Of a stretch of 64,000 nt of DNA, positions 15,536-54,127 are shown piece by piece. The notes beneath the pieces are model-generated. The model was not told where the DNA came from and did no database searches. It saw nothing but the letters and a program-made list of their open reading frames with translations. Location: positions 2,739-66,738 of the forward strand of contig JBQTIC010000054.1 of NCBI GenBank assembly GCA_052388435.1. Direction: 5' to 3'. This DNA is from Chromatiales bacterium. Its GTDB lineage: Bacteria > Pseudomonadota > Gammaproteobacteria > JAJPIJ01. Made by a program: the position numbers and the translations under genes. Every line of letters starts with the position of its first letter. The stretch's first letter is position 1.

Positions 15536-15611
15536 GCCCTGGTAGCTCAGGGGATAGAGCAACCGCCTCCTAAGCGGTAGGTCGGCGGTTCGAGTCCGCC
15601 CCAGGGCGCCA
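15536..15611 (+). tRNA. tRNA-Arg (anticodon CCU)
   Basis: Cloverleaf: acceptor GCCCTGG/CCAGGGC, D-arm GCTC-AGGGGATA-GAGC, anticodon stem ACCGC/GCGGT with loop CU-CCU-AA, T-arm GGCGG-TTCGAGT-CCGCC, discriminator G, encoded CCA. Confidence 0.9.
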
Positions 15612-19179: not shown

Positions 19180-20508
19180 TCAGCCGGTGCTGGCCGCGTG
19201 CGTGGCGTCGGCCTTTTCTCCCTGCTGACTCTCTCGCTCGGTGGTGACCGACAGGCGCTGGATCAGCGTGCGCACGAACACCTTGAGAAAGTGGACCTGG
19301 CAGCTCATGGACAGCTGGTTGATGACGGTGGAGTTGAGCTTGAGCAGCGAGGTCGGTTCGCAGGCGACGATGGTCGCCGTGCGCCGGGTGCGCGTGAGAT
19401 AGCCCATCTCCCCGAAGCAGTCGCCGCGAGCGAGCATGCGCAGATCCCTGCCTCCCTTGCGCACGGTGACAGCACCACCGGCGATGACATAGAACGAGTC
19501 GTCGATCTCGCCCTCGACGATGATTTCCCGGCCAGGCTCAAACTGCAGCCAGGTACCGGCCCGCACCAGCTGCCACAGCTCACTGTCGGGGAAGGTCTGG
19601 AAGAACTCCAGCTTCCGTATCGTTGTGAACAGCTCCTTGACGGCGAGATCCTCCCTGGGTTGCTCGAGGAGATGCTCGAAGGCACGGCTCAGGTCCGCGG
19701 CCAAGTCGAGCGCGGTCAGATACCGCTGGGCCTGGTTCTTGGCCAGCGCCGTGCGCATAATCCGGTCCAGCTTTTTTGGCAGGTCACGCCGGAGCGCGTC
19801 GATGGGTGGCGGCTCGTCGTTCAGGATGCGCTGGATGAGCCGCGAGAAGCTCTCCGCGGCGAACGGGTGCCTGCCGGTCAGCAGTTCGAACATGATAATG
19901 CCAAGGGAAAAGATGTCGGTCTGAGCGGTCAGCGCATCCTCGTTGATCTGCTCCGGGGAGAGATAAAGCGGCGAGCCGACCAGGCCGAGCGGCATGGTGC
20001 CCGTCGCGTCCAGCTTGGTGATATAGGCGATGCTGAAGTCACCGATCTTGACGTCGAGATCCGGGGTGAGCAGGATGTTGCTCGGCTTGATGTCGCGGTG
20101 GATGATACCCTGGCGGTGAGCGTAGTCGAGCGCCTTGGCGCACTTGAAGACGATCTCCACCACCTTCTCTATCGGCAGCAGCGCGTCCGGCTTGCAGCAG
20201 GGTTTGAGCGTGGTCCCGCCTTCGACATATTCCATGACGATGTAGCACTGCTCCTCGACCCCGGCGTCCAGTATGGCGACGATATTGGGGTGGGTGAGCA
20301 GGCCCGCGGTGTGCGCCTCGTTGAAAAACATCTTGCGGTACTGGGCGCCCGAGTGTTCGTCATTGAGCTGTTCGGCATGGGCGACCTTGATGGCGACCTG
20401 GCGGTCGAGATAGGGGTCGTGGCCCAGATACACAGTGCCCATGCTACCCCGGCTTATCTCCCGTAACACCTCGTACTTGCCTAGCTTCTTCGGCGCCGGA
20501 TTGGCCAT
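19180..20508 (-). CDS. Ser/Thr protein kinase with C-terminal cyclic-nucleotide-binding (cNMP) domain
   Basis: Hanks kinase motifs: GSMGTVYLG, VAIK, HRDIKPSNILL, DFSIA, SPLYLSPE. C-terminal CAP-family cNMP-binding fold: FFQTFPDSELWQL...EGEIDDSFYVIAGGAVTV...GDCFGEMGYLTRTRRTATIVA. Confidence 0.85.
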   Translation of the reverse strand: MANPAPKKLGKYEVLREISRGSMGTVYLGHDPYLDRQVAIKVAHAEQLNDEHSGAQYRKMFFNEAHTAGLLTHPNIVAILDAGVEEQCYIVMEYVEGGTTLKPCCKPDALLPIEKVVEIVFKCAKALDYAHRQGIIHRDIKPSNILLTPDLDVKIGDFSIAYITKLDATGTMPLGLVGSPLYLSPEQINEDALTAQTDIFSLGIIMFELLTGRHPFAAESFSRLIQRILNDEPPPIDALRRDLPKKLDRIMRTALAKNQAQRYLTALDLAADLSRAFEHLLEQPREDLAVKELFTTIRKLEFFQTFPDSELWQLVRAGTWLQFEPGREIIVEGEIDDSFYVIAGGAVTVRKGGRDLRMLARGDCFGEMGYLTRTRRTATIVACEPTSLLKLNSTVINQLSMSCQVHFLKVFVRTLIQRLSVTTERESQQGEKADATHAASTG

Positions 20509-21254: not shown

Positions 21255-22301
21255 ATGCGCTCCTTCCTAGGCACTCTCGCCGTCGTCGTGCTCGTCGTTG
21301 CAGGAGTTTACTTGTACCTGCAGCAGGGGCCGCAGCGGGCCGAAACCAGTCCCGAGCAGGTCGCGGATGCCCACCCGGCGGTGCAGGACCAGTCCGCTGC
21401 CGCTGAGGAGAAACTGGAGCAGGAGGCTCGCGACTACATCCGCGACATCACCACGCTGCAGCAGCAGCCGCTCTCGGCGCAGAACGCGGACAACTTCGTG
21501 CAGCGTGATCAGACTATCCGGCTGCTTCCCGAAACCAAAGTGGAGGAAGTCACGCCCAGGCAGCTTCTCGCCGACCCGAACCTCGAGCCGGACACGCCGC
21601 TGACCGTGATTAAGGAAGTGGAGCAGATCGAGATCGTGACCCCAGACACTCTGCGCGAGAGGAACCCCAGCGACCCAGATCAGCCCATCAAGGTGCTGGA
21701 GGGGGACCTGATCAAGGAGACCACGGTCGGCGAGGTGCTCGACCAGCATGGCGCGGCCGGTGATGCGCCGATTACGCTCGTCAAGGAGGTGGAGGAGGTG
21801 CGGGCGATGACGGCCAGGGAGATCCAGCAGGACCCGTCGCTGGCCGCTGACGAGAAGATCAAGATCGTGCGCGGCCGCCAGCGGCTCGATGAGGCCACCG
21901 TGGCTGAGCTGATGCCCAGTCAGGAGGGCAGCGACGCGGATGCCATCTATTACATTCGCACCGTGAAAGCCACCGACAAGCAGGGTATCTGGGGCATCAT
22001 CCAGTATGGCCTCGTCGACAACTTTGCCACCGGCATCGCCATTCGTCGCGGCGAGGACATCGACACCTACCGCGTCGACATCCCCCGGGACGCCGATGAG
22101 ATGGTCAACGGGCAAACCAGCTCATTCCTTGGCAAGATGATCCATGCCAAGTCGAGCGACACCTACGTCTACAACTTTGAGAAGGGGCGCATGGGTCACA
22201 ATCCGAACATGATCCGCCCCGGCCAGGAACTCCTCATCATCCGCTTCTCAGCCGAAGAGCTTGTCGCGATCTATAAGCACTTCGTCAACAGCCGCGCCTA
22301 G
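21255..22301 (+). CDS. hypothetical membrane-anchored acidic repeat protein (possible LysM-like C-terminus)
   Basis: N-terminal TM (FLGTLAVVVLVVAGVYLYL). Four ~20-aa repeats (P.T.LTVIKEVEQIEIV / PIKVLEGDLIKETTV / PITLVKEVEEVRAMT / KIKIVRGRQRLDEAT). C-terminus ...NPNMIRPGQELLII resembles the distal half of a LysM motif. Start ATG 21255 or GTG 21237. Confidence 0.5.
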   Translation: MRSFLGTLAVVVLVVAGVYLYLQQGPQRAETSPEQVADAHPAVQDQSAAAEEKLEQEARDYIRDITTLQQQPLSAQNADNFVQRDQTIRLLPETKVEEVTPRQLLADPNLEPDTPLTVIKEVEQIEIVTPDTLRERNPSDPDQPIKVLEGDLIKETTVGEVLDQHGAAGDAPITLVKEVEEVRAMTAREIQQDPSLAADEKIKIVRGRQRLDEATVAELMPSQEGSDADAIYYIRTVKATDKQGIWGIIQYGLVDNFATGIAIRRGEDIDTYRVDIPRDADEMVNGQTSSFLGKMIHAKSSDTYVYNFEKGRMGHNPNMIRPGQELLIIRFSAEELVAIYKHFVNSRA

Positions 22302-22353
22302 GAATCTGGCGCACTTAAGCCGCCACCAGAACCACTCCGGCGGGACCAACCTC

Positions 22354-24006
22354 ATGGACATCACCACCAGCCAGGCGTGGCAGCGGCTCGGCGAACACCA
22401 TGATCGCGTGGTCGGTCTGCACATGCGTGAACTGTTCGGATCGGATCCAGAGCGGTACGGGCGCTTCGCTCTGGAGTGCGACGATCTGTTCCTCGACTAC
22501 TCCAAGAACCGCATCGTCCCCGAGACCATGGAACGGCTGCTCGCGCTTGCGCGTGCGGCAGAGGTCGAGGCGGCGCGCGAAGCGATGTTTGCGGGCGACA
22601 CGATCAACCACACCGAGCACCGCGCCGCCCTGCATACGGCGCTACGCAACTTTGGCGACAAGGCGGTACATGTCGACGGCGAGGATGTGATGCCAAGGGT
22701 ACGCGGCGTGCTGGCCCGCATGCGCACGCTAGTTGAGACTGTCACCAGCGGTCAGTGGCGCGGCCATAATGGCGCACGCATCACCGACGTGGTGAACATC
22801 GGGATCGGCGGGTCGCACCTTGGGCCGTTCATGGCCAGCGAGGCGTTGCGTCCCCATCATCAGGCCGGCCTGAGGGTGCACTACGTCTCCAATGCCGACC
22901 CCAGTGACATTGCTCTCACGCTTGCGGGACTGGACCCGGCCTCCACCCTCTTCATCGTTGTCTCCAAGACGTTCACGACGCTGGAGACATCGGCGAACGC
23001 CGCCGTGGCGAAGGCGTGGTTGATGCAACGCTTCGGGGAAGAGCGCGCTATCGCGGATCATGTGGTCGCTGTGTCGAGCGACCTGGAGGCGGCGCGCGCA
23101 TTCGGGGTCGGCACCGCCAACGTGCTGGAGATGTGGGACTGGGTTGGGGGCCGTTACTCGCTGTGGTCCGCCGTCGGCCTTTCCACCGCCTTAGCCGTCG
23201 GAATGGATGCATTCCTCGATCTGCTCAGGGGGGGCTGGCAGATGGACAATCACTTCCGTTCCGCGCCGCTTGAGACCAACCTGCCCATCATCCTCGGTCT
23301 GCTGGGCGTGTGGTATCACAACTTCTTCGGCGCGGAGAGCCACTGTGTCGTGCCGTACGAGGAGTTGCTGAAGCACCTGCCCGCGCATCTGCAGCAGCTC
23401 GACATGGAGAGCAATGGCAAGCGGGCGCAACGCGATGGCCATCTACTGCCGGTCACCACGGCCCCCGTGATCTGGGGCGGCACCGGCACGAACACCCAGC
23501 ACGCCTTCTTTCAGTTGTTGCACCAGGGGGGACGCGTCATTCCCGTCGATTTCCTGCTCGGACTGGCGAGTCCGTGCCCGCTCGGCGAGCAGCACGACCT
23601 GCTGGGGGCAAACTGTTTCGCGCAGTCGGAGGCGCTCATGCGCGGACGCACGCTCGAAGAGACCGCTGCCGAAATGCTTAAGGCGGGTATGGCATCAGAC
23701 CGCGTCCGCTTGCTCGCCCCCCATCGCGTCTTCCCCGGGAACAACCCCAGCAACACGCTGCTCTACTCCAAGCTCACGCCGCGAGTGCTCGGCCAGCTCA
23801 TTGCCCTCTACGAACACAAGGTCTTCGTTCAGGGCGTCATCTGGGGTGTCAATTCCTTCGACCAGTGGGGTGTGGAGCTTGGCAAGCAACTGGCGACGAC
23901 CATACTCGGCGAGTTTCGTGGCGACAATGCACCGGCACACGACGCGTCGACGAGCGGCCTGATCGCGCGTTTTCGGGGCCGCCCCCGCCAGGGAACCACT
24001 GATTAA
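22354..24006 (+). CDS. pgi: glucose-6-phosphate isomerase
   Basis: 550 aa. Motifs NIGIGGSHLGP, VSKTFTTLET, VGGRYSLWSAVG, LDMESNGK, GTNTQHAFFQLLHQGG are PGI signatures. Start ATG 22354 (MDITTSQAW). Confidence 0.9.
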   Translation: MDITTSQAWQRLGEHHDRVVGLHMRELFGSDPERYGRFALECDDLFLDYSKNRIVPETMERLLALARAAEVEAAREAMFAGDTINHTEHRAALHTALRNFGDKAVHVDGEDVMPRVRGVLARMRTLVETVTSGQWRGHNGARITDVVNIGIGGSHLGPFMASEALRPHHQAGLRVHYVSNADPSDIALTLAGLDPASTLFIVVSKTFTTLETSANAAVAKAWLMQRFGEERAIADHVVAVSSDLEAARAFGVGTANVLEMWDWVGGRYSLWSAVGLSTALAVGMDAFLDLLRGGWQMDNHFRSAPLETNLPIILGLLGVWYHNFFGAESHCVVPYEELLKHLPAHLQQLDMESNGKRAQRDGHLLPVTTAPVIWGGTGTNTQHAFFQLLHQGGRVIPVDFLLGLASPCPLGEQHDLLGANCFAQSEALMRGRTLEETAAEMLKAGMASDRVRLLAPHRVFPGNNPSNTLLYSKLTPRVLGQLIALYEHKVFVQGVIWGVNSFDQWGVELGKQLATTILGEFRGDNAPAHDASTSGLIARFRGRPRQGTTD

Positions 24007-24100
24007 ACCGCAGCCGACGCGGAGCGGCAGTTCGTCTGTGCAGGATGATCAGCATCGCGCCAGGCCATGATGTCGCGGCTACGGCGGATCCGCAAAGACA

Positions 24101-25420
24101 CTATGCGTTGTTCACAACCTTTGCCGTCGTCGTCGACAAGCGCTCGATCAGGATCCGCAGGAACACCTTGCAGAACCGTAACTGGCAGTCCTTCGACACC
24201 TGCTCGATGAGCGTGGAATTGACCTTCATGAGCGTGACCGGCGCGCTCGCCACGATGGTGGCTGTGCGGCGCAGGCGACTGATGTATCCCATCTCGCCGA
24301 AACAGTCACCGGGCTTGAGCAGGCCGACGATGACGCCGCCCTTCTTCACCGTGACCGAGCCGTTGATGAGTATGTAGAAGGAATCGTCTATCTCACCTTC
24401 GACGATGATCTCATCGCCCTGGTCGTACTGCTCCCAGACGCTGGCGCGGATGATCTCCCAAACCTCGGCGTCTGGAAAGCCGCGGAAGAAATCCAGCTGC
24501 TTGACACTCAGGAACTTCTCTTTGGCCGAAAGGTCCTCCTGCGGGCGTTCGAGCTGGCTGAAGGATGTGCTGAGGTCGGAGGCGAGCTCGATGCCCATCT
24601 TGTAACGGTACTGCGGGTCCTTGGCCAGGCAGCGGTTGACAATCCGCGCGATGCTTTCCGGCAGATCCACCCGTACCTCGTGTATCGGGATCGGCTCTTC
24701 GTTCACCACGCGGTAGACCAGATTGGAGAACGATTCGCCTCCGAAAGGATGGCGGCCCGTAAGCAGCTCGTACATCACCACGCCGAGCGAAAACAGGTCG
24801 GTCTGGCTGGTGATGCTCTCCTCCTGGATCTGCTCCGGAGACATGTAGCGCGGTGAACCCACAAAACCCATTGGCAGTGTCTTGGAGGCGTCGCGGCGCG
24901 TCACATAGGCGATGCTGAAATCTCCAATCTTGAGGTCCTTGTCGTGCGTCAGCAACATGTTGGAGGGCTTGATGTCGCGATGGATCACGCCCTGCCGGTG
25001 GGCGTAGTCGAGGGCCTTGGCGCACTTGAAGACGATCTCCACCACCTTGTGCACGGGCAGCAGGTTGTCGGCGCGGACGTAGGACTTAAGCGTGTCGCCG
25101 CCCTCGACGAGCTCCATGACGATGTAACAGGTCTCGCCCTCCACCCCGGCGTCGAAGATGTCGAGGATGTTCGGGTGGCGCAGCATGCCGGCCGTGTGCG
25201 CCTCATTGAAGAACATCCGGCGGTAGGACTCACCGGATTCCTGGTCCCGCAGCGCTTCGGCAAGGGCGACCTTGATGGCCACGGGGCGCGCAACGAAGGG
25301 ATCGTAGCCCCGGTACACCGCGCCCATGCTGCCGCGGGCTATGGCCTTGATGACGTCGTACTTGCCGAGCTTGCTTGGCGTGGCGTCCGGCGCCAGGGGT
25401 GCGTAGAGGGCGGTGTTCAT
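24101..25420 (-). CDS. Ser/Thr protein kinase with C-terminal cNMP-binding domain (paralog of 19180-20508)
   Basis: ~60% identical to the first kinase along its length: GSMGAVYRG, VAIK, HRDIKPSNMLL, DFSIA, SPRYMSPE, then FFRGFPDAEVWEI...EGEIDDSFYILINGSVTV...GDCFGEMGYISRLRRTATIVA. Start set at ATG 25420; the ORF-track extension to 25543 runs into the MITE-like repeat. Confidence 0.85.
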   Translation of the reverse strand: MNTALYAPLAPDATPSKLGKYDVIKAIARGSMGAVYRGYDPFVARPVAIKVALAEALRDQESGESYRRMFFNEAHTAGMLRHPNILDIFDAGVEGETCYIVMELVEGGDTLKSYVRADNLLPVHKVVEIVFKCAKALDYAHRQGVIHRDIKPSNMLLTHDKDLKIGDFSIAYVTRRDASKTLPMGFVGSPRYMSPEQIQEESITSQTDLFSLGVVMYELLTGRHPFGGESFSNLVYRVVNEEPIPIHEVRVDLPESIARIVNRCLAKDPQYRYKMGIELASDLSTSFSQLERPQEDLSAKEKFLSVKQLDFFRGFPDAEVWEIIRASVWEQYDQGDEIIVEGEIDDSFYILINGSVTVKKGGVIVGLLKPGDCFGEMGYISRLRRTATIVASAPVTLMKVNSTLIEQVSKDCQLRFCKVFLRILIERLSTTTAKVVNNA

Positions 25421-25458: not shown

Positions 25459-25616
25459 TTAGGGAAGCTCTGAATAAGCCCATCCTGGACTTTTCAGAGC
25501 ACGCAAAGCAAAAAGCGTGGTTTTTGCTTTGCTTCATCTTCAACGGCTTGCAGCCTTCGAAGATGGCGGCACATCCCTGTGCCGCAGGAACCTCTGACTT
25601 AATCAGAGGTTCCTTA
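25459..25616. repeat. 158-bp MITE-like repeat, copy A
   Basis: 99% identical (2 mismatches) to 47642-47799. Imperfect terminal inverted repeats (TTAGGGAAGCTCTGAATAAGC vs ...GACTTAATCAGAGGTTCCTTA). Internal perfect palindrome GGAACCTCTGA-cttaa-TCAGAGGTTCC and an AT-rich hairpin AAGCAAAAA-gcgtgg-TTTTTGCTT. GC content well below the flanks. Confidence 0.65.
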
Positions 25617-25760
25617 GGTAGAGAACCGGATCACCGGTCACCGCCGGCGAGCCGCGAAACTGCGGCCGGGGGTGACCGGCGCGCACTTTCGCGCAGAAAC
25701 ACACGCGGGGCTCCCCTGCCGCAACAGGCGTATAATTCGGGCATTCAAGTGCTTGCGCTA

Positions 25761-26408
25761 ATGACCGACCACCATTCGACGCTGTCTCGTTTCAAAGTCG
25801 CCGCGGCGGCGGTCGTGGTGTTGGTGGTAGTGGCCCTTGCTGCTTATCTGCGGCACCCCATGGAATCCGCCCGGACCAGGCTGCCGGCTGCGGTTCCCGG
25901 GCTGCTCTGGCCCGCCGCCAAGACACTGCACGGGATCGCGCTGACGGATCATCGCAACCAGCCGTTCGACGACGAAAAACTCAAGGGGAAATGGTCGCTG
26001 CTCTTCTTCGGCTATACCCACTGTCCCGATGTCTGTCCGAACACGCTGCAGATGCTGAACCAAGTGGTACCGAAGCTGCCGGCGGACACGCAGGTGGTCT
26101 TCGTCTCGGTCGACCCGCAGCGTGATACTCCTGAACGACTCGCCGAATACATCTCCTATTTTCACCCTGACTTTCTCGGCGTGGGCGGGTCCCGGGAGGC
26201 TGTGAATGCACTGACCGCACAGATCGGAGTCGTGAATATCAGGAATGCCGAGAGTGACACCGGCCAGTACACTGTCGACCACACGGTGTCGCTGTTCCTC
26301 GTCGATCCTGAGCTGCGTCTGGTCGGCCTGTTCTCCCCGCCGTTGGCAGCCGGGGCGTTGGAGCGCCGGTACCGGCAGGTCCGCGAGTTGGTGGAGAGAG
26401 AGGGTTGA
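25761..26408 (+). CDS. SCO1/SenC copper chaperone (thioredoxin-fold)
   Basis: N-terminal TM anchor, then WSLLFFGYTHCPDVCPNTL (CxxxC copper site) and ...DHTVSLFLVDP. ORF-track start 25413 lies inside the repeat; ATG 25761 (MTDHHSTLSRFKVAAAAVVVLVVVAL) is preferred. Confidence 0.8.
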   Translation: MTDHHSTLSRFKVAAAAVVVLVVVALAAYLRHPMESARTRLPAAVPGLLWPAAKTLHGIALTDHRNQPFDDEKLKGKWSLLFFGYTHCPDVCPNTLQMLNQVVPKLPADTQVVFVSVDPQRDTPERLAEYISYFHPDFLGVGGSREAVNALTAQIGVVNIRNAESDTGQYTVDHTVSLFLVDPELRLVGLFSPPLAAGALERRYRQVRELVEREG

Positions 26409-44838: not shown

Positions 44839-45864
44839 ATGAGAAGCAACGAGAAAACCGTCAACCTCGCCCTGCAAGGCGGCGGCGCGCATGGCGCGTT
44901 CACGTGGGGGGTCCTCGACCGCCTGCTCGAAGACACCCGCGTGCGGATCGAAGGCATCAGCGCCACCAGCTCCGGCGCAATGAACGCGGTCATGATCGCC
45001 AACGGACTCGCCACGGGCGGGCGGGTCGGTGCGCGCGAGAAGCTCGCCGCCTTCTGGGAGATGATTGCCCGCAGGTCGCCTTTTGATCCTACCGGGAGCG
45101 GCATGTTGGCAATGTTCGGTGCGCCGCAGGCGGATCCGCCGCCCTGGATGCAGGCCTACATTGGGCTGTCGCGGACGCTGTCGCCTTACGTGGTTAACCC
45201 GCTCGACATCAACCCCCTGCGCGACATTCTGAGCCAGATCGTGGAGTTCGACCGGCTGCGCGACGGTTGCCCCATTAAACTCTTCGTCTCCGCCACACGC
45301 GTCAACAGCGGCAAGATCCGCATCTTCCGCAACAACGAGCTCAAGGTGGAGGTTCTGCTCGCCTCCGCCTGTGTGCCCTCGCTGCACCACGCCGTGGAGA
45401 TCGACGGCGAGGCGTACTGGGATGGTGGTTTCTCCGGCAACCCCGCCCTGTTTCCGCTCATCTTCGAGTGCCGTGGCGAAGACATCGTCATCGTGATGCT
45501 GCATCCGCTGGAGCGCAGCAAGGTGCCGACCAGCGCCAAGGCCATCTGGGAGCACATGACGGACCTTGCCTTTAACTCCGCCTTCCTGCGCGAAGTGCAG
45601 GCCATCGCGCACATGAAGACGCACGCCGACAGGCTGTGGGGGTTCGGTCCGATCGAACGCCGGTTCCGCCGCCTCAAGCTGCATCTCATCGAGGGCGAGG
45701 CGCTGCTCGGACAGCTCAGCCACAGCAGCCGCTTCAACGCCCGTCTCTCGTTTCTAGAGCATCTTCGCGACCAGGGCCGCGAGCATGCCAGCCAGTGGTT
45801 GGAGGGCCAGTTCTCGCAAGTCGGTTCGCGCTCGACCCTCAACATCGCCGAGCACTTTGCATGA
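44839..45864 (+). CDS. patatin-like phospholipase family protein
   Basis: Oxyanion hole LALQGGGAHGAF, nucleophile elbow GISATSSGA (G-x-S-x-G), catalytic Asp region DGGFSGNP. 341 aa. Stop overlaps phaC start. Confidence 0.8.
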   Translation: MRSNEKTVNLALQGGGAHGAFTWGVLDRLLEDTRVRIEGISATSSGAMNAVMIANGLATGGRVGAREKLAAFWEMIARRSPFDPTGSGMLAMFGAPQADPPPWMQAYIGLSRTLSPYVVNPLDINPLRDILSQIVEFDRLRDGCPIKLFVSATRVNSGKIRIFRNNELKVEVLLASACVPSLHHAVEIDGEAYWDGGFSGNPALFPLIFECRGEDIVIVMLHPLERSKVPTSAKAIWEHMTDLAFNSAFLREVQAIAHMKTHADRLWGFGPIERRFRRLKLHLIEGEALLGQLSHSSRFNARLSFLEHLRDQGREHASQWLEGQFSQVGSRSTLNIAEHFA

Positions 45865-47645
45865 CCATGGACGCCGCTGCTAGCACCGAGCGGAGTGCGC
45901 CGCCGCCAGCGCGCATGTGGCAGCGGCTCATGGGATACCAGTGCGCGCGTGACTGGATCGAGTGGCAGCGGCAGGTTTGGGCCGAGCACCCGCTCGCGAA
46001 GCTCATTCCGCTCGACACCGCGGAGGTGTCGCGGGCTTGGATCGATCTTGCCGAGCTCCTGGCCGCGCAACCGGCGCTCGCAGAGAAACACCTGAGCACC
46101 CTGCTCTATGAGCAGTCCAGGCTGGCACTGTGGACCTGGCGGCGGCTGCAGGGTGACGCCGCCGAGGAGCCGATCCCGGCGTCGGTGAAGGACCACCGCT
46201 TTCAGGACCCGGACTGGTCGCAATTGCTTCCTTTCAGCACGCTGCGCCAGTGGTATCTGCTGTGGTCGAAATGGATCAGCCACGCGACCGAGGAGGCCGG
46301 GAGCGGGAACGTCGATACGCAACGTATCGCCTTCTATTTGCGTCAGTGGCTCGATGCCCTGTGCCCCGCGAACTTCCCCGTCACCAACCCCGTGGTCATG
46401 CGCGAGACGCTGGCGAGCGGCGGCGAAAACCTTAAGCGGGGTCTGAAGAATCTGGCCGAGGATCTGGAGCGTGGCGCAATCAGCGTGGTCCCAGGCGAAC
46501 GTTTCAGACCAGGCGAGAACCTGGCGCTCACACCTGGCGACGTTGTCTATCGCAACGAGCTGATGGAACTAATGCAGTACCGGCCGGCCACCAAGAAGAC
46601 CTACGCCGTGCCGCTGCTCATCATTCCGCCGTGGATCAACCGCTACTACGTGCTGGACATGCGTCCTGGCATGAGCATGGTGGAACATCTGGTCGCGAAG
46701 GGATTCGCCGTATTCCTCATCAGCTGGCGCAATCCCGACAAGTCACAGGCCAGCCTCGGCTTCGAAGACTACTTGCGGCTTGGACCCCTGGAGGCGCTCA
46801 AGGTCATCAAGGGCATCACGCGCTCGCGCAAGGTGAATCTCGCCGGCTATTGCATCGGCGGCACCTTGCTAGGCATCGCGCTCGCGTACCTCGCGGCCAG
46901 GCGCGACTTCACCGCCGGCAGCGCCACGTTCCTCACCTCACTGCTCGACTTCGCAGAGGTGGGCGAGACCGCGCTCTTCCTCTCCGAGCAGCAGCTCGCC
47001 GAGATAGAGCGGCGCATGAATGCCAAGGGCTACCTGAGCCCGGACGAAGTCAGCTCGATCTTCCGCCTGATGCGTTCCAACGATCTCATCTGGAACTTCG
47101 TGGTCAACAATTATCTCCTGGGCAAGGAACCGCCGTCATTCGACCTGATGCACTGGAGCGTGGACGGCACGCGGCTGCCGCGCGCGATGCACGAGTACTA
47201 TCTTTACAACATGTATCTGCGGAACAATCTGAGCAAGCCGGATGCGCTCGAAATGCTCGGCAAGAAGATCAACCTCGGCCGGGTGCGCTGTCCCGCCTAC
47301 ATCGTCGCCGGCTCGGAGGATCACATCGTGCCGTGGCGCGCGGCGTTCCGCACCACCACACTGCTCAGCGGGCCCGCGCGTTTCGTGCTGGGCAATGCCG
47401 GGCACATCACCAGCATCGTCTCTCCGCCCGGTCCCGGCAAGGCCGCTTACCTAACGGGGAAGGTCGATACCGGCGACGCTGATGGCTGGCAGCAGGCGGC
47501 GACGCGGTACACAGGGAGCTGGTGGTCGGACTGGGTGAAGTGGCTGGCCAGGCATTCCGGCGAGAACACCGCTCTGACCCCGCGCGGCAGCAGGAGGTAT
47601 CCGCCAATCGAGCCTGCGCCCGGCCGCTACGTGCTGGAGACTTAG
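45861..47645 (+). CDS. phaC: class I poly(R)-hydroxyalkanoate synthase
   Basis: 594 aa from ATG 45861 (ATGA overlap with the patatin gene). Lipase-box GYCIGGT with catalytic Cys, alpha/beta-hydrolase core, conserved PhaC N-domain (WQRQVWAEHP...). ORF-track start 45636 is inside the patatin gene. Confidence 0.9.
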   Translation: MTMDAAASTERSAPPPARMWQRLMGYQCARDWIEWQRQVWAEHPLAKLIPLDTAEVSRAWIDLAELLAAQPALAEKHLSTLLYEQSRLALWTWRRLQGDAAEEPIPASVKDHRFQDPDWSQLLPFSTLRQWYLLWSKWISHATEEAGSGNVDTQRIAFYLRQWLDALCPANFPVTNPVVMRETLASGGENLKRGLKNLAEDLERGAISVVPGERFRPGENLALTPGDVVYRNELMELMQYRPATKKTYAVPLLIIPPWINRYYVLDMRPGMSMVEHLVAKGFAVFLISWRNPDKSQASLGFEDYLRLGPLEALKVIKGITRSRKVNLAGYCIGGTLLGIALAYLAARRDFTAGSATFLTSLLDFAEVGETALFLSEQQLAEIERRMNAKGYLSPDEVSSIFRLMRSNDLIWNFVVNNYLLGKEPPSFDLMHWSVDGTRLPRAMHEYYLYNMYLRNNLSKPDALEMLGKKINLGRVRCPAYIVAGSEDHIVPWRAAFRTTTLLSGPARFVLGNAGHITSIVSPPGPGKAAYLTGKVDTGDADGWQQAATRYTGSWWSDWVKWLARHSGENTALTPRGSRRYPPIEPAPGRYVLET

Positions 47646-47799
47646 GGAAGCTCTGAATAAGCCCATCCTGGACTTCTCAGAGCACGCAAAGCAAAAAGCG
47701 TGGTTTTTGCGTTGCTTCATCTTCAACGGCTTGCAGCCTTCGAAGATGGCGGCACATCCCTGTGCCGCAGGAACCTCTGACTTAATCAGAGGTTCCTTA
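47642..47799. repeat. 158-bp MITE-like repeat, copy B (between convergent phaC and glnE)
   Basis: See copy A (25459-25616). Begins on the phaC TAG stop and ends 2 nt after the glnE stop, so it fills the whole convergent intergenic gap. Contains the 11-bp-stem palindrome GGAACCTCTGA/TCAGAGGTTCC, a plausible bidirectional terminator. Confidence 0.65.
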
Positions 47800-50691
47800 A
47801 GCACCCTCGACCACAAACAACTGCCAGAGTCGTTGCACCAGGCTGCGCGCTTCCTGGAACTCGCTGTCGGCGGCGAGCGCCGGCTGCTCCTGCAGGGCGC
47901 GCCGGTGAGTCTCCGCGCGAAAGGCAAAATACGCCTCGCGCACGGCAATGCAATCCGCCGCCGGCAATACACCGCAATCGCTGAAGACTTCAAGCAGCCG
48001 CAGATTATCGGTCCACGCAAGGAGGGCCGGACACTCCGCGGCATGGGCGAGCACGCCATATTGCACCATAAATTCAATGTCCGTCATACCACCCTCACCC
48101 TGCTTGAGATCGAATACGCCCGCCTCGCGGGAGGCGAGTTCCTGGCGCATGCGGCTTCGCATGTCGAGGATGTCGCGCCGCAGAACCGCGCGATCACGCT
48201 GCCTGCCCAGCACGTCGTTGCGAATGCGCCGAAAGCCCTCGGCGACGCTGCTGTGACCGGCGACAAAACGTGCGCGTACCAGGGCCTGGTGCTCCCAGGT
48301 CCACGCCTGCTCGCGCTGATACTTGCCAAAGGCCTCCAGGCTGCTGACCATCAGGCCCGACTCCCCGCTCGGGCGTAACCGCGTGTCCACCTCGTAGGCG
48401 AGACCCGCCGGCGTGAACGTGGAGATGAGGTGGATGAGACGCTGTGCGAGGCGCGTGAAAAAGGAACTGTTGTCGATGGGGCGGACGCCGTCCGTCAGCT
48501 GTTCCTCCCCCGCGCTGTCATGCAGGAACACCAGATCGAGGTCCGATCCATAGCCGAGTTCCAGTCCGCCCAGCTTCCCGTAGGCGATGACGGCGAAGCC
48601 CGCCGGCCGGCCGTCAGCTCCTGAACCGCACTGCGGACGTCCGTGCCGCTCGGTCAGATAGCCCCATGCCAGGTCGAGCGCGACACGCAACACCGTCTCG
48701 GCGATCCACGACAAATGATTGCTGACTTCCGGCAGCGCCAGATGACCGGTGAGATCCGCGGCGGCGACCTTGAGCACCTCGGCGTGCCGGAAGTGTCGCA
48801 GCGCATCCATCTGATGTTCCAGATCGGCGGGCGCATGCTTCGCGATCTCGTTGCGCAGGGCCTTCTCCAACGCCGCCGCGCCGGGAGGCGCATAGAGTGC
48901 GCGGGCATCAAGGAGTTCATCAAGCAGGATCGGGTGCTGGGCAATGTAGTTGGCAATCCAGGGGCTGGCAGCAAACAGCCTGGCCAGTTGCTGCAAAGCC
49001 TGCGGCTGCTCGGCAAGGAGGGAGAGATACACGCTGCGGCGGGCGACCGTCTCCAGCAGCCGGAAGATGCGTTGCACGGCGACGATCTCTCCGGTGCCGC
49101 CGGCGACCGTCCCGAGCACCATCGGCATCAGCCGCGACAGGCGCTCCTGCCCGTGCGCACTCAGCCGACCGATGTCTTGCGCCAGGCGCAGCTTGTCGAT
49201 CTCTTCCAGAGCCGCCCCGGGGTTCTCGAAGCCGGTGGCGTTCAGCGTCGCGATCGCCTGCTCCTCGGTGAGGCGTCCCGCCCACAGCTCCACCAGTTGC
49301 GACGTCGCGGTGGAGATCGTTCCGGCCAGACGGTTACGATTTTCCAGAAGGCGCGCGAAGTGAGTCTCGACGTGCTGGCGATGGACATGCAATGCCGCCT
49401 CGAACTCCTCCCATGCCTCGAACCCCATGCCGAGGGCGATGCGCGTGCGCTCCGTCTCCTCCTCCGGCAATGTGTGGGTCTGGCGATCGTCAAGCTGCTG
49501 CAATCGCTGCTCGGTGTTGCGCAAGAAGACATACGCGGCCTGCAGATCCTGGACCGCCTGCGCCGGCAATTCTTCGAGCGCACCCAGCGCATTCAGTGCC
49601 GCGCGCGTCGAGCGCACCCGCAGCGCGGGCTCGCGCCCGCCGCGGATGAGCTGGAAGGACTGGGCGATGAACTCGATCTCGCGGATGCCACCGGGCCCGC
49701 GCTTGATGTCGTCCCGCAGTTCTCCGCGCGCGACTTCGGAGTTGATGAGTGCCTTCATTTCGCGCAGGGCCTGCAGCGCGCCGAAATCGACGTAGCGGCG
49801 GTACACGAAGGGCTGCAAGGCCCGCAGAAAGCGCTCGCCGGCGTCGAGGTCGCCGGCGCAGACGCGCGCCTTGATCATGGCGTAGCGTTCCCAGTCCCGC
49901 GCGTGCGCCTCGTAATAGCTCTCCATCGCCGCCATGCTCTGCGTGAGGGCGCCGCTGTCGCCGAATGGACGCAGCCGCATGTCAACCCGAAAAGCGAAGC
50001 CGTCCTCGGTCGGCTCGTGCAGCACCTTGACGAGGCGCCGGCCCAGGCGATCGAAGAACTCCTGGTTGGATATCGAACGCCGCCCACCCTGGGTTTCCCC
50101 CGCCCGCGGATAACCGAAGATGAGGTCGATGTCGGAGGAGAAGTTCAGTTCCGCCCCTCCGAGCTTGCCCATGCCGAGGACGAAGAGAAGCTGCGGTCGG
50201 CCGCGATCATCCACCGGGCTGCCGTAGCCACCGCTCTGATCCGCGCACAGCCACCTCAGGGTCACGTCCGTTGCCGCATCGGCGAGCGAGGATGTTTCGC
50301 GCAGGGTGCTCTCGCTATCGGCAAGGCCACCCAGATCACGCCAGGCAATCCGCACCATCTCGCGGTTGCGGAACCGGCGCAGCGCCACCTTGAACGCGGT
50401 TTCGTCCGCCACGCCGTCGAGGGCCGCCGTCAGGCGCTGCACATAAATCTCCCGCTCGCATGCCCGTTCCAGTTCACCGCTGCGGAGCAACGCATCAGCG
50501 AGACCGGGATTCCGCTGCAGTACGCGAGCGACAAAGCGGCTGCAGGCAAGCACCCGCGGCAACGCGCAAGCCGCGCTGTCCTCGGGCGCCGCTAATATCG
50601 TTCCTGTATCGATCTCCTGCAAGAGACGCGCAACGTCGGCGCGAAGTGCCTCGGGGATGGTATTCAGGGACGGTATCACGGCGAGCTTCAT
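47797..50691 (-). CDS. glnE: bifunctional glutamine synthetase adenylyltransferase / adenylyl-removing enzyme
   Basis: 964 aa with two nucleotidyltransferase domains (…GMGKLGGAELNFSSDIDLIF… and …AYGKLGGLELGYGSDLDLVFL…), each followed by a GlnE helical domain. Confidence 0.9.
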   Translation of the reverse strand: MKLAVIPSLNTIPEALRADVARLLQEIDTGTILAAPEDSAACALPRVLACSRFVARVLQRNPGLADALLRSGELERACEREIYVQRLTAALDGVADETAFKVALRRFRNREMVRIAWRDLGGLADSESTLRETSSLADAATDVTLRWLCADQSGGYGSPVDDRGRPQLLFVLGMGKLGGAELNFSSDIDLIFGYPRAGETQGGRRSISNQEFFDRLGRRLVKVLHEPTEDGFAFRVDMRLRPFGDSGALTQSMAAMESYYEAHARDWERYAMIKARVCAGDLDAGERFLRALQPFVYRRYVDFGALQALREMKALINSEVARGELRDDIKRGPGGIREIEFIAQSFQLIRGGREPALRVRSTRAALNALGALEELPAQAVQDLQAAYVFLRNTEQRLQQLDDRQTHTLPEEETERTRIALGMGFEAWEEFEAALHVHRQHVETHFARLLENRNRLAGTISTATSQLVELWAGRLTEEQAIATLNATGFENPGAALEEIDKLRLAQDIGRLSAHGQERLSRLMPMVLGTVAGGTGEIVAVQRIFRLLETVARRSVYLSLLAEQPQALQQLARLFAASPWIANYIAQHPILLDELLDARALYAPPGAAALEKALRNEIAKHAPADLEHQMDALRHFRHAEVLKVAAADLTGHLALPEVSNHLSWIAETVLRVALDLAWGYLTERHGRPQCGSGADGRPAGFAVIAYGKLGGLELGYGSDLDLVFLHDSAGEEQLTDGVRPIDNSSFFTRLAQRLIHLISTFTPAGLAYEVDTRLRPSGESGLMVSSLEAFGKYQREQAWTWEHQALVRARFVAGHSSVAEGFRRIRNDVLGRQRDRAVLRRDILDMRSRMRQELASREAGVFDLKQGEGGMTDIEFMVQYGVLAHAAECPALLAWTDNLRLLEVFSDCGVLPAADCIAVREAYFAFRAETHRRALQEQPALAADSEFQEARSLVQRLWQLFVVEGA

Positions 50692-50764
50692 GCGTATGCC
50701 GGAGTCGTGAAGACCTTTTGCACCGGGCGCAGGGTCGTCGACTGCGGAACCTGACCCCTTGGGT

Positions 50765-51478
50765 TCAGCGCTCCGACTGTTTTTCGAGGTCCTGAAGACG
50801 TTTCATGAGGAAGCGCTGCTCTGCGGGGTCCGTGACCTTGCCGTCTTCCAGCAGTCCGCCGATGAGGATCTTCGCCGCCTCGATCTCTCCCATGTCCTCC
50901 AAGACAAAGATATTCATTTGACGCGCCCATTTCGGCACCTGCGGTCCCCTGGCGTGGGTGGCGAGCGCGTCGGCGTACTTGAGCGCGAGCGCCAGATCGC
51001 CGATGCGGTGCCTGGCTACGTACACCGCGTGGGCGAGCCACTGCCAACGGCCGTTGGGGTTCTTGAGGAATTCGCGGTAGACGAAATCGAGCATCTGCCG
51101 CTGCTTCGTCGGCACCGGCACTTCGCCGTAGAGGCGGGCGGCCGCGAGCAGTGGGTATTCCGTGCGCTCATCGAGACTGCCGACGCGCTCCAGCCACGCC
51201 ACAACGCGCCCATAGTCAAGGTCCCGGAAGGGAATGCTCAGGCCCGGCGGGTTATCAAAGGCCTGCAGCCACAGCATGAGCGCCTGCGCGAGGACGATGC
51301 GATCCCCCGCTGCCAGTACCTGCAACACAGGCAGCGCGGGAGGAGCGGGCAGCGCCTCGGCGTGCGCCTCGGGCGCCGGGCGAACGTGGTGCCAGGCGCC
51401 CTGCATTAGCAGGCTCGCCACGAGCAACATCAGCGCGGCGCGCGGCACGGCGTGGATGGGACGTTCCCTGGCTGACAT
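50765..51478 (-). CDS. hypothetical secreted/periplasmic protein
   Basis: 237 aa, N-terminal signal-like segment (AALMLLVASLLMQGA), helical remainder. No family recognised. Co-oriented with the upstream membrane protein and with glnE. Confidence 0.45.
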   Translation of the reverse strand: MSARERPIHAVPRAALMLLVASLLMQGAWHHVRPAPEAHAEALPAPPALPVLQVLAAGDRIVLAQALMLWLQAFDNPPGLSIPFRDLDYGRVVAWLERVGSLDERTEYPLLAAARLYGEVPVPTKQRQMLDFVYREFLKNPNGRWQWLAHAVYVARHRIGDLALALKYADALATHARGPQVPKWARQMNIFVLEDMGEIEAAKILIGGLLEDGKVTDPAEQRFLMKRLQDLEKQSER

Positions 51479-51480
51479 AT

Positions 51481-52251
51481 CTAGAAATTCTTCCGGTAAA
51501 GATCAAAGAGTCCGGCGCCGATCAGGAGAGCGAGGTAGATGATTGTCTGCCCGAGGATCGGCGCAAGCGCCGCGGGGTTGCCGGTCCCGTAAACGAGCCA
51601 CTCGCTGGGGGTGTAGCGATACAGTTCCGGCAGCAGGTAGGCCAGACCATCCACCATCGCTGCAATGATCTTCTGCGACCAGGCATTGGGGTCGATTAGA
51701 GGTCCGTGTCCCATCAATTGGATCGCGTCGATGACGCGCCCGAGTACGTAGAACGCGGCCACCGCGCTCAGGGCGGCAGTGACCTGCGAGAAGGTGAACA
51801 TGCACAACAGGCTGAGGGCGGCGATGATCAGCATTTCGCAGTACAGCGACAATGCCCAGAGCATCGCCTGGGCGGGCGGCGCGTAGAACGCGACGACAGC
51901 GCCGAAGGCCATGGCACCGATCAGCGCCACCAGGCCATAGCCCATGACCTTTCCGCAATAATACACATGGCGCGGCAGCGCGAGGGAGAGAACGAGATCC
52001 GCGCCCTTGTCCGCCAGTTCGCGCGCCACGCTGCTCGCCACAAACAACCCGATGAGGAACACGCCCGCCGCGCGCAGGAACGCAGCCAGGAACGCTATCC
52101 TGATCGCCCCGCTTTCGGTCACGGCGGCGGCGGCGGCAACCTCGGCGAGCAGGAACGCGATCACAACCGTTACCGCCAGCAGTACGAGCAGCCGTCCCCG
52201 GACCGCCTCCAGGGCGGTGAAGATCGCGATGGTTCCCGCCTTATGCCACAT
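51481..52251 (-). CDS. hypothetical polytopic membrane protein (ABC-2-permease-like topology, 6-7 TM)
   Basis: 256 aa, almost entirely hydrophobic helices. No ATPase partner in the window. 2-nt gap to the next gene. Confidence 0.45.
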   Translation of the reverse strand: MWHKAGTIAIFTALEAVRGRLLVLLAVTVVIAFLLAEVAAAAAVTESGAIRIAFLAAFLRAAGVFLIGLFVASSVARELADKGADLVLSLALPRHVYYCGKVMGYGLVALIGAMAFGAVVAFYAPPAQAMLWALSLYCEMLIIAALSLLCMFTFSQVTAALSAVAAFYVLGRVIDAIQLMGHGPLIDPNAWSQKIIAAMVDGLAYLLPELYRYTPSEWLVYGTGNPAALAPILGQTIIYLALLIGAGLFDLYRKNF

Positions 52252-52342
52252 TGGTCACCTCTTTGCCAACGAGTACTATAGCAATCGTAACGAGGCGTTG
52301 TAGCGCCCCCAGAAAGCCAGATCCGGACTCTCCCGCTGCCCC

Positions 52343-54127
52343 ATGGACGCTGACATAACAAAGCCCGCGCGCATACCCGCCCGATCAGCGCAGATTGTCC
52401 GTGTGCTGATCGTAGTGTTCAGCAAGTACGAGAATGTCGTGCTTGCCACCATGCTGCTCCTGCTGCACCTGTCGCTGTGGTGGGACTTCGCCGGCCCGCT
52501 GTCCCGATCGCTCATGCTCGCCCACCTGGGGCTCTTCTTCCTCTGGCAGCCGATCTGGCGGGGCGATCAGCGCCTCGATATGCACAGCGCTGTCCTCTTC
52601 TTTCTCTGCACGATCGGGTTTGTGGTGCTGCTGAACGGCTGGCTGTTCGTATGCTGGCTCATCCTGCTCATCGGCCTGGTGGGCGGCCGCTCGTTAAGTC
52701 AGACGAGAGAGCGCTACGTCTACATGCTGACGCTGTTCTTCCTGACCTCCGAGCTGCTCATCGGCGCCACGCCACTGCTGTTTGACACGGGCGGTCTGCC
52801 CGGCACGATAAACGATCTCTTTCGTTACGGCCTGCTCGCGATCCCGCCGGTCGTTGCCTTTATACCAGCCATGGCTTCGGGCACGCGTACGCGCTTTGCC
52901 GTCGACCTTCTGCGCGGAGTGACCACTTCGATGATGGCGGCCATCGTGGCCATGGGCAGTCTGATAACGATGTACCGGTCACAGGCCGACTACTCGGAGG
53001 CATTGTTCTGGGCGTCCCTTGTGCTTGCAGGCTTCCTGTTCGCCATCAGCTGGCTTCTTACGCCGGGGACAGGGGTCAGTCGCCTCGCGGAGGTGTGGGA
53101 GCGCTCCCTGCTCAACATCGGCACGCCGTTCGAGGAGTGGTTGGCCGACCTTGCCAAAGTCGCCGAGCAGCACCTCACGCCCAAACAGTTCTTTGAAGCG
53201 GCCATGCTGGCGCTGGTCAGGCTGCCGTGGGTGCGCGGCGTGGCGTGGAGTGGATCTGACCTGGCCGGGAGGCACGGAGATCGCACGGTGCACTTCATAG
53301 ATCTCAACGCCGCCGGTGTCACCGTGCTCCTGTTCGTGCCGCGATCACCGGGCCCTGCGCTGCTGCTGCACGCCAAACTGCTGGTGCAGCTGCTGGGGCA
53401 TTTGTACACGGCCAAGCAGCGCGAGCAGGAGCTCGCCAAACAGGCGCACCTGCAAGCCATCCATGAGACCGGGGCACGCGTCACCCACGATATTAAGAAT
53501 CTGCTGCAGTCCCTCCAGGCCATCACCGCCGTGCTGACCGAGGCACCGCTGCCGATCGGCGCCTCGGAACGGCGCCGTTCGGCGCGCGTGTTTCAGCTGA
53601 TCGAGCGCCAGATGCCGCTCATCACGCAACGCCTGCAGCTCGCGCTGGACAAGCTCCAGTCCCCGGAGAAAACGGTCCAGCAGGAGAGACGGTTGCGCGA
53701 ATGGTGGGAGTCGCTCAAGGTCCGCAATCATGACACCGGTATCGGCTTTAAGGATAGCATTACAAGCAACCCGCTCATCCCGGGCGATCTCTTCGACAGC
53801 GTCGTCGAAAACCTGCTTGAGAATGCGCGCCACAAGCGGGAGCTCGAACGGGATATCGAGATCGGAGTGATGCTCACCAGCAACGGGGGGGGTCTTCGGC
53901 TCGAAGTGACCGACACGGGGAGTGCTGTTCCAGCGGCGGTCGCGGAGGGCCTGCTGAAGCAGCCGGTCAATTCTGACACCGGATTGGGCATCGGGCTTTA
54001 TCAGGCCGCGCGGCAGGCCGAGATGGTCGGCTACACGCTCAGCCTGCGGACCAATATCCCCGGCAAAGTCTGTTTTGAGCTCTCGGCCACCCAGCCGGCC
54101 AAGGGCGCAGACACGATGCTCGGTTGA
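52343..54127 (+). CDS. sensor histidine kinase with large polytopic N-terminal membrane domain (PrsK-like architecture), orphan
   Basis: ~250 aa with 7-8 TM helices, a GAF-like linker, H-box ARVTHDIKNLLQSLQ, and HATPase N/G boxes (LENARHK..., DTGSAV..., GLGIGLY). No response-regulator gene adjacent. Confidence 0.7.
   Translation: MDADITKPARIPARSAQIVRVLIVVFSKYENVVLATMLLLLHLSLWWDFAGPLSRSLMLAHLGLFFLWQPIWRGDQRLDMHSAVLFFLCTIGFVVLLNGWLFVCWLILLIGLVGGRSLSQTRERYVYMLTLFFLTSELLIGATPLLFDTGGLPGTINDLFRYGLLAIPPVVAFIPAMASGTRTRFAVDLLRGVTTSMMAAIVAMGSLITMYRSQADYSEALFWASLVLAGFLFAISWLLTPGTGVSRLAEVWERSLLNIGTPFEEWLADLAKVAEQHLTPKQFFEAAMLALVRLPWVRGVAWSGSDLAGRHGDRTVHFIDLNAAGVTVLLFVPRSPGPALLLHAKLLVQLLGHLYTAKQREQELAKQAHLQAIHETGARVTHDIKNLLQSLQAITAVLTEAPLPIGASERRRSARVFQLIERQMPLITQRLQLALDKLQSPEKTVQQERRLREWWESLKVRNHDTGIGFKDSITSNPLIPGDLFDSVVENLLENARHKRELERDIEIGVMLTSNGGGLRLEVTDTGSAVPAAVAEGLLKQPVNSDTGLGIGLYQAARQAEMVGYTLSLRTNIPGKVCFELSATQPAKGADTMLG

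Follow-up and report, generated by a model that had tools for sequence, protein, structure and literature searches.

A 158-bp repeat that occurs twice in 64,000 nucleotides of Chromatiales bacterium DNA (GenBank assembly GCA_052388435.1, contig JBQTIC010000054.1, positions 2,739 to 66,738; this whole stretch is termed the window) was analyzed by sequence comparison. [quoted passage not shown] This assignment draws on the terminal repeats and flanking duplications of the copies, on relatives in other genomes and metagenomes, and on full-length insertion sequences (ISs) with the same ends.

Boundaries and target sites of the two copies

The 158-mers lie at 25459-25616 (copy A) and 47642-47799 (copy B), in the same orientation, and differ at 2 of 158 bases (T in copy A and C in copy B at 25493/47676; T and G, respectively, at 25528/47711). 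Identity drops abruptly at both edges of the repeat, and the flanks of the two copies are unrelated. The GC content is 0.49 for copy A and 0.51 for copy B, compared with 0.63 for the whole window. The element proper comprises 151 bp (25463-25613 in copy A, 47646-47796 in copy B), and the outer TTA of each 158-mer is target sequence. The terminal inverted repeats are 18 bp long. The left repeat reads GGAAGCTCTGAATAAGCC, the right repeat is the reverse complement of GGAACCTCTGATTAAGTC, and 15 of 18 positions agree. No chance match to the terminal pattern was expected in the window. A target-site duplication of 4 bp flanks the element, TTAG/TTAG at copy A, and TTAG on the left with TTAA on the right at copy B. 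The features of the two copies are as follows.

25459-25462: left target-site duplication of copy A, TTAG; the same 4 bp are found at 25614-25617
25463-25613 (+): MITE copy A, 151 bp; the divergent kinase and SCO1 genes on its two sides are 340 bp apart
25463-25480 (+): left terminal inverted repeat of copy A, GGAAGCTCTGAATAAGCC; matches MITEPsy1 at 16/18 and Escherichia coli IS5 at 14/18 positions
25596-25613 (-): right terminal inverted repeat of copy A, - strand reading GGAACCTCTGATTAAGTC; the full-length IS in locus L074 has an identical left end
25614-25617: right target-site duplication of copy A, TTAG
47642-47645: left target duplication of copy B, TTAG; 47643-47645 is the phaC TAG stop
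47646-47796 (+): MITE copy B, 151 bp; hairpins 1 to 5 at 47650-47683, 47686-47715, 47718-47748, 47749-47768 and 47770-47796
47797-47800: right target duplication of copy B, TTAA; 47797-47799 read on the opposite strand gives the glnE TAA stop

An earlier note on this DNA, made from the letters alone, had described two approximately 99% identical copies at these positions, of lower GC content than their surroundings, and both descriptions hold. It had given imperfect terminal inverted repeats of about 20 bp; the repeats are imperfect, and their length is corrected here to 18 bp. Its 158-bp size is right for the repeat and 7 bp too long for the element. A flanking duplication is present as it proposed, in the 4-bp YTAR form of IS5-type elements and not in the TA/TTA form that it gave.

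Relatives in other genomes and metagenomes

A collection holding one genome per species was scanned with a 22-nt pattern for both ends, TTARGGAASCTCTGAWTAAGYC. Metagenome contigs were scanned with the right-end palindrome, without a constraint on the flank. At least 117 loci in the genome collection carry the terminal pattern, in Gamma- and Betaproteobacteria, Acidobacteria, Chloroflexi, Nitrospirota and others. At least 120 metagenome contigs were matched, with many of the matches at contig ends. Both scans together gave at least 230 loci in other genomes and metagenomes with these terminal inverted repeats.

Plus- and minus-oriented ends were paired in the loci listed, which gave 96 pairings, 86 of them miniature elements of 47 to 400 bp. 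Identical 4-bp flanks were found in 101 of 153 distinct paired elements from all loci listed, and 91 of these 101 are YTAR. For the metagenome set, identical 4-bp flanks were found in 39 of 70 elements and identical YTAR flanks in 30 of 70, against a YTAR background of 0.6% of tetramers in those loci. The smallest elements with YTAR flanks measure 47 to 57 bp (L022 4532-4578, L041 6195-6246 and L011 352-408) and contain little beyond two facing terminal repeats. From these elements, the terminal ends alone appear to be enough for insertion.

Copies A and B are 1.3% apart, while the closest copy elsewhere, among the matches listed, is 94% identical; this small divergence relative to that of the closest outside copy fits a recent spread in this lineage. 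Logan contig L118, from an assembly of the same organism, stops 25 nt into copy B, a break of the kind that repeats cause in assemblies. A blastn search of the 158-mer against plasmid and phage collections, including the plasmid record that carries MITEPsy1, gave no match. A literature search for the repeat strings returned primers only.

A solo repeat-like sequence, GGAACCACTGATTAAACC, is present outside both copies at 23992-24009 (+) and matches the family terminal repeat at 15 of 18 positions. It has CCAG just before it, overlaps the stop codon of an open reading frame (ORF) at 22261-24006 (+) and sits in the 94-bp gap ahead of the end of the convergent kinase gene, with no partner end seen nearby. 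By our own estimate, a match of this type is expected by chance about 0.04 times per window. The sequence is probably a relic of another IS5-type element.

Full-length elements with the same ends

Among the loci listed, five full-length elements of 1.08 to 1.19 kb have the same ends (L074, L105, L112, L038 and L063). The element at L074 160-1308 is an IS of 1149 bp with a left end identical to the right repeat of the window element and a single ORF of 315 aa. For this ORF, the NCBIfam model NF033581 (IS5 family transposase) gave 340 bits, above its cutoff of 140, and Pfam DDE_Tnp_1 and DUF772 also matched. The ORF product shares 50 to 55% identity with transposases of the IS5 family that are annotated on plasmids of Ralstonia, Rhodanobacter and Sulfitobacter. 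A transposase gene of this type was found in only 8 of the 117 genome loci listed, so nearly all bearers of these ends are MITEs. A cognate IS in the source genome would measure 1.1 to 1.2 kb and have the ends GGAASCTCTGAWTAAGYC. The terminal repeats of the window element match the E. coli IS5 ends at 13 to 14 of 18 positions.

The earlier note had called the repeat a recently mobilized, MITE-like element, and the terminal repeats at other loci, with target-site duplications there, bear this out. The related full-length ISs with matching terminal repeats that it had proposed to look for are the elements above, which encode an IS5-family transposase.

The five-hairpin interior

The element folds into five consecutive, independent hairpins on either strand and does not form a single long foldback. 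The RNA minimum free energies for the two strands are -79.8 and -88.5 kcal/mol (z = -9.1 and -10.8), and DNA parameters gave -51.9 kcal/mol (z = -10.9). Each terminal repeat folds back locally, without pairing to the opposite end. The perfect 11-bp palindrome (GGAACCTCTGA/TCAGAGGTTCC) and the AT-rich hairpin, both noticed previously and both present, are two of the five. The hairpins of copy A are as follows.

25467-25500: hairpin 1; the left-repeat core CTCTGA pairs with an internal TCAGAG; inner loop CCATCCTGG (AGGAU on the - strand); C22 invariant in 44 members
25503-25532: hairpin 2, AT-rich 12-bp stem; compensatory double changes at 8 of 12 pairs; the only terminator-like site
25535-25565: hairpin 3; compensatory double changes at 9 of 12 pairs
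25566-25585: hairpin 4, GCGGCAC-ATCCCT-GTGCCGC; covariation at 4 of 8 pairs; C113 and C114 of the loop invariant in 44 members
25587-25613: hairpin 5, perfect 11-bp palindrome; the right terminal repeat plus an inverted copy of its own outer 11 bases

Where the variable repeat position of hairpin 5 swaps between C-G and G-C, the two arms change together. In copy B, one hairpin 2 pair is broken by the G at 47711.

The interiors of 150 distinct elements without ambiguous bases were clustered. One family of 77, to which the window copies belong, was obtained, along with at least 13 further families sharing these ends. Members of the window family are 69 to 94% identical to copy A, and their hosts, where genome records name one, are all metagenome-assembled genomes of Gammaproteobacteria. 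Five hairpins were predicted for 43 of 44 distinct full-length members (median -77.8 kcal/mol, median z = -10.5). In the other 13 families listed, every member is a single foldback, except one with two domains; five domains were found only in the window family.

In an alignment of 13 sequences, 93.7% of cells were paired, and compensatory double changes affected 24 of 54 pairs (80 cells), mostly in hairpins 2 and 3. The observed values were reached by none of 500 shuffles, and partners that had been slid gave 35 to 45% pairing. An alignment of 44 sequences gave the same picture for hairpins 2 to 5. Such covariation in the stems is incompatible with coding, and the interior is accordingly taken to be non-coding. 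A small - strand ORF that starts from an AUG in hairpin 4, judged by eye, was dismissed, since stem covariation would not preserve a coding sequence.

Several variants of the element were observed. Locus L115 has an 86-bp form that retains hairpins 5, 4 and 1 only. At locus L055 1-265 (-), five-hairpin elements follow each other in a head-to-tail tandem with a period of 124 bp, in which the hairpin 5 inner arm of one unit (GGAAGCTCTGAA) doubles as the left terminal repeat of the next. The copy at L065 7027-7177 ends at the inner arm of hairpin 5. The tandem and the L065 copy indicate that the internal inverted copy of the repeat can serve as a recombination or boundary point.

Flanking genes and the phaC/glnE stop codons

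The genes next to the two copies, which are those named by the earlier note, are listed below.

24101-25420 (-): Ser/Thr kinase with a cyclic nucleotide monophosphate (cNMP)-binding domain, flanking copy A
25761-26408 (+): SCO1/SenC, flanking copy A
45636-47645 (+): PhaC, flanking copy B
47797-50691 (-): GlnE (NCBI protein MGQ0657838.1, from the metagenome-assembled genome of an uncultured organism), flanking copy B

The stops of the convergent phaC (TAG, 47643-47645) and glnE (TAA, reverse complement of 47797-47799) lie within the duplications of copy B. Removal of the element and one flank from copy B gives GACTTAGGCACC or GACTTAAGCACC, in which both convergent stops overlap in one YTAR tetramer. 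The empty site for copy B is thus predicted to be GAGACTTAGGCACC or GAGACTTAAGCACC, with overlapping stop codons. The duplication would leave phaC and glnE with a separate stop each and neither protein altered.

Adjacency to the stop of a long ORF was found for 31% of MITEs with these ends, compared with 13% of all YTAR sites. Within the five-hairpin family, 18 of 58 elements adjoin the stop of an ORF with 120 or more codons, and elements lie between convergent genes more often (11) than between divergent genes (3). YTAR contains a stop codon (TAR) on both strands. Since such AT-rich tetramers are also rare in a genome of 63% GC, surviving insertions are often found on stop codons.

The nearest relatives by GlnE (L239, L240 and L241, 65-72% identical) have glnE followed by an Aminotran_4 gene in the same direction, and then zf-CHCC, Elm1 and GshA. 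Compared with these loci, the genes upstream of glnE in window positions 47797-53770 (a HATPase kinase and two small ORFs) are syntenic. Synteny ends exactly at the glnE stop, that is, at MITE copy B, and the neighbor there is the convergent phaC. The Aminotran_4 block is not present within the 64-kb window. This break, together with the TTAG/TTAA flanks of copy B, could be the mark of a rearrangement through recombination between MITE copies.

Two further features of the window were recorded. A 243-nt stretch of 72% identity at 20253-20495 and 25138-25380 lies inside two Ser/Thr kinase paralogue genes 4.9 kb apart and is unrelated to the MITE. Among RNA families, only a tRNA gene at 15536-15608 (68.3 bits) reaches the Rfam gathering score in the window.

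Weighing of the explanations

Several observations weigh against the assignment of copies A and B to the IS5-family MITEs. The mobility of these two copies is something that we infer. The flanks of copy B are unequal by one base (TTAG/TTAA), as would result from a later point mutation or from recombination between two copies. No transposase was found in the window by tblastn with that of L074 as query, in line with the earlier note; a cognate IS was seen in other genomes and is putative for this organism. The pattern used for the genome scan started with TTAR and thereby forced one flank in that set, so that only the metagenome set is unbiased. The covariation controls ignore the shared ancestry of the aligned sequences. 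An empty site for copy B was not recoverable through homologues of GlnE, the nearest of which are 65 to 72% identical and have another downstream gene.

A local segmental duplication, or a host repeat resembling repetitive extragenic palindromic (REP) sequences, would account for a window with just two copies and without a transposase. Such a reading leaves unexplained the flanks that are unrelated right up to the 4-bp duplications, the hundreds of relatives elsewhere at unrelated sites with YTAR duplications, and the full-length ISs with the same ends, and is hardly credible. In our view, the unrelated flanks and the YTAR duplications already refute it. Quasi-palindromes are corrected by within-strand template switching during replication, which is an established process. 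The compensatory changes could have arisen by this route without function, and the hairpins would then be a mutational by-product. This agrees with the equally good pairing on both strands, with wobble pairs that are not favored by our count, and with stem mismatches, such as the copy B G at 47711, that look private to single copies. It leaves unexplained why the loop bases (TCC in hairpins 4 and 1) match the repeat core in invariance, and why the five-hairpin layout is found in only one of 14 listed families with the same ends; we consider it somewhat unlikely.

The earlier note had proposed that copy B acts as a bidirectional transcription terminator between phaC and glnE, in which case the hairpins would be kept for the host. 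Five very stable hairpins form on either strand, the family is more frequent between convergent than divergent genes and enriched at stop codons, and on the + strand a T-rich tail follows copy A hairpin 2. A consensus scan found nothing terminator-like inside copy B, and no T run follows a hairpin on the - strand of either copy. The weak tail of copy A hairpin 2 is the only terminator match and is at chance level (1 found, 0.8 expected); this copy also lies upstream of genes, not downstream. Enrichment at 3' ends would be expected anyway from a YTAR target combined with the loss of disruptive insertions. The proposal is therefore not upheld, and such a terminator is judged unlikely. The hairpins could still block exonucleases.

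A further explanation is that the element, or its interior, is a CsrA/RsmA-binding, Rsm-like RNA with two GGA loops on - strand transcripts, which would place neighboring mRNAs under Csr/Rsm control or titrate the protein. Hairpin 4 on the - strand, GCGGCAC-AGGGAU-GUGCCGC, fits the CsrA consensus RUACARGGAUGU from systematic evolution of ligands by exponential enrichment (cited in PMC4347634), and the inner loop of hairpin 1 reads AGGAU on that strand. All 44 members examined keep the hairpin 4 GGA, and 41 of the 44 have GGA in both loops; on the + strand, the corresponding TCC of the two loops is invariant or nearly so, conserved like the repeat core. Members in L225 and L149 matched RsmW (RF02809) over its full length on the - strand with both GGA loops aligned, at 37.3 and 35.7 bits, below the gathering score of 52. 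The window copy gave a sub-threshold RsmV match of 13.7 bits. RsmW is a 3' untranslated region (3'UTR)-derived, RsmA-binding small RNA (PMC4950607; PMC13622538). The absence of the five-hairpin fold from all 13 listed sibling MITE families with the same ends also speaks for a role of this kind.

The remaining evidence does not favor such an RNA. No Rsm match reached the Rfam gathering score; the only match in the window to do so is the tRNA elsewhere. There is no orientation bias, with 9 ORFs ending at the left end only and 6 at the right end only (p = 0.6), and a first test of adjacent genes gave 42 on the + strand and 34 on the - strand from crude longest-ORF gene calls in which copy A was mis-called. 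No promoter-like site was found in or beside either copy. Wobble-type mismatches are symmetric, with approximately 11 G-U and 12 C-A by our count from the pair-type table, and do not indicate a single RNA strand. No csrA was found in the window or in the sampled loci, a small sample. Of the features of Rsm/Csr-type small RNAs (clan CL00106), several GGA hairpin loops were found, and a gathering-score match and signs of expression from a defined strand were not. An Rsm-like RNA is on balance very unlikely. Only slightly less doubtful, and still quite unlikely, is the broader proposal that the five-hairpin interior is a selected module. This would be either an Rsm/CsrA-binding RNA carried by a transposon, which has two invariant GGA loops on one strand and distributes sites for Csr/Rsm control or decoy sites over genomes of uncultured Gammaproteobacteria, or a DNA or RNA structure needed by the IS5-type transposition machinery.

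Other Rfam candidates were rejected. The gyrA RNA motif (RF01740) matched hairpins 2 and 1 at 25460-25532 (-) with 25.3 bits against a threshold of 45 and was absent from 12 other family loci. The ivy-DE motif (RF02999) matched hairpins 5 and 4 at 25562-25613 (-) weakly, with 19.7 bits against 41.4. The psRNA14 match was also weak. These matches are probably due to chance or to generic hairpin resemblance. The ACAGGGA loop of hairpin 4 also occurs in the ivy-DE consensus hairpin, GGGGUACAGGGAGUACCUC.

Proposed spread of the element

As judged from the IS5 family, a DDE transposase of the IS5 group encoded elsewhere would bind the 18-bp terminal inverted repeats of the MITE, excise it and insert it at a 4-bp YTAR site that is duplicated on insertion. 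Copy B would have entered the 4 bp in which the convergent phaC and glnE stops overlapped, and copy A would have landed upstream of two divergent genes. The 151-bp interior does not derive from the transposase gene as a remnant, and its five hairpins are preserved family-wide through compensatory substitutions. The upkeep of the hairpins is most likely due to selection on the actively transposing lineage, for element stability or tolerance, or to a mutation bias that corrects palindromes; a host RNA function is less likely. Hairpins that keep the ends from pairing, or that render insertions harmless, may be selected in lineages that are still transposing. Selection at the level of the element fits single copies with stem breaks of their own, such as the G at 47711 in copy B.

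For annotation, this assignment would explain a low-GC, hairpin-rich 158-mer and place the phaC and glnE stops in duplicated target sequence around copy B. One 18-bp IS5-type end is common to at least 14 unrelated MITE families over many bacterial phyla, and only the window family has swapped the usual end-to-end foldback for five separately folding, covarying hairpins. If transposition or RNA-protein binding depends on the hairpins, the family, with its natural compensatory variants by the dozen, is a tractable case for studying the role of a MITE's non-terminal part. If they do not matter, the family is a clean natural example of palindrome maintenance without function.

Comparison with known systems

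The ends of E. coli IS5 (1195 bp), GGAAGGTGCGAATAAG and GGAAGGTGCGAACAAG, match the left repeat of the window element at 14 and 13 of 18 positions, respectively. As in IS5, the repeat starts with GGAAG and ends with AATAAG, the target is YTAR, and the duplication is 4 bp. L074 and the other full-length relatives also resemble IS5, with approximately 1.15 to 1.19 kb and one DDE transposase ORF of about 315 aa; their transposase has at most about 55% identity to any plasmid-borne IS5-family copy, those of E. coli included. Unlike IS5, the window element is 151 bp long and non-coding.

MITEPsy1 of Pseudomonas syringae pv. phaseolicola 1448A is 100 nt long, has GGAAGGTCTGAAAAAGCC and GTATCCTCTGAAAAAGCC as its repeats and duplicates 4 nt, CTAG or YTAA (Bardaji et al. 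2011, PMC3189936). It derives probably from ISPsy2 (IS5 family), and its transposition into sacB was trapped experimentally (PMC3189936). The window element resembles it in the 18-bp repeat (GGAAGGTCTGAAAAAGCC and GGAAGCTCTGAATAAGCC agree at 16 of 18 positions), the 4-bp duplication, the lack of coding capacity and a presumed mobilization in trans by a transposase of the IS5 family. It differs in its interior, its five-hairpin layout and its GGA loops, and it is known from sequence alone, whereas MITEPsy1 has been seen to transpose. The MITEPsy1 copy on plasmid p1448A-A (L242 16481-16580, CTAG flanks) has an interior unrelated to that of the window element. MITEPsy1 itself was ruled out by this interior and by the length of 151 bp as opposed to 100 nt; the ends and the duplication type are common to both. 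The kind of element is thus already known, as an IS5-family MITE beside MITEPsy1 with a different body, and only the conserved five-hairpin interior with GGA loops exceeds the ordinary.

A MITE of the IS630/Tc1-mariner type, which would duplicate TA or TTA, was ruled out by the 4-bp YTAR flanking repeats and the IS5-family transposase. A REP element or bacterial interspersed mosaic element was ruled out by the IS5-type terminal repeats and the YTAR duplications. The elements in a paper on Thiomargarita MITEs are unrelated to the window element. Like RsmW, the element consists of several stem-loops in succession, the first and last of which have ANGGAN loops, and RsmW likewise comes from a 3'UTR. 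Unlike RsmW, it has two GGA loops only and no promoter or terminator, the window copy gave no RsmW match, and it is a transposon with terminal repeats and target duplications.

In the Correia/NEMIS, ERIC, YPAL and RUP elements, the two ends pair into one long hairpin, and most of these elements duplicate TA. The window element shares with them a small size, terminal inverted repeats, intergenic positions often beside stop codons, and strong secondary structure. It differs from them in that it forms five separate hairpins, pairs its ends locally and duplicates YTAR.

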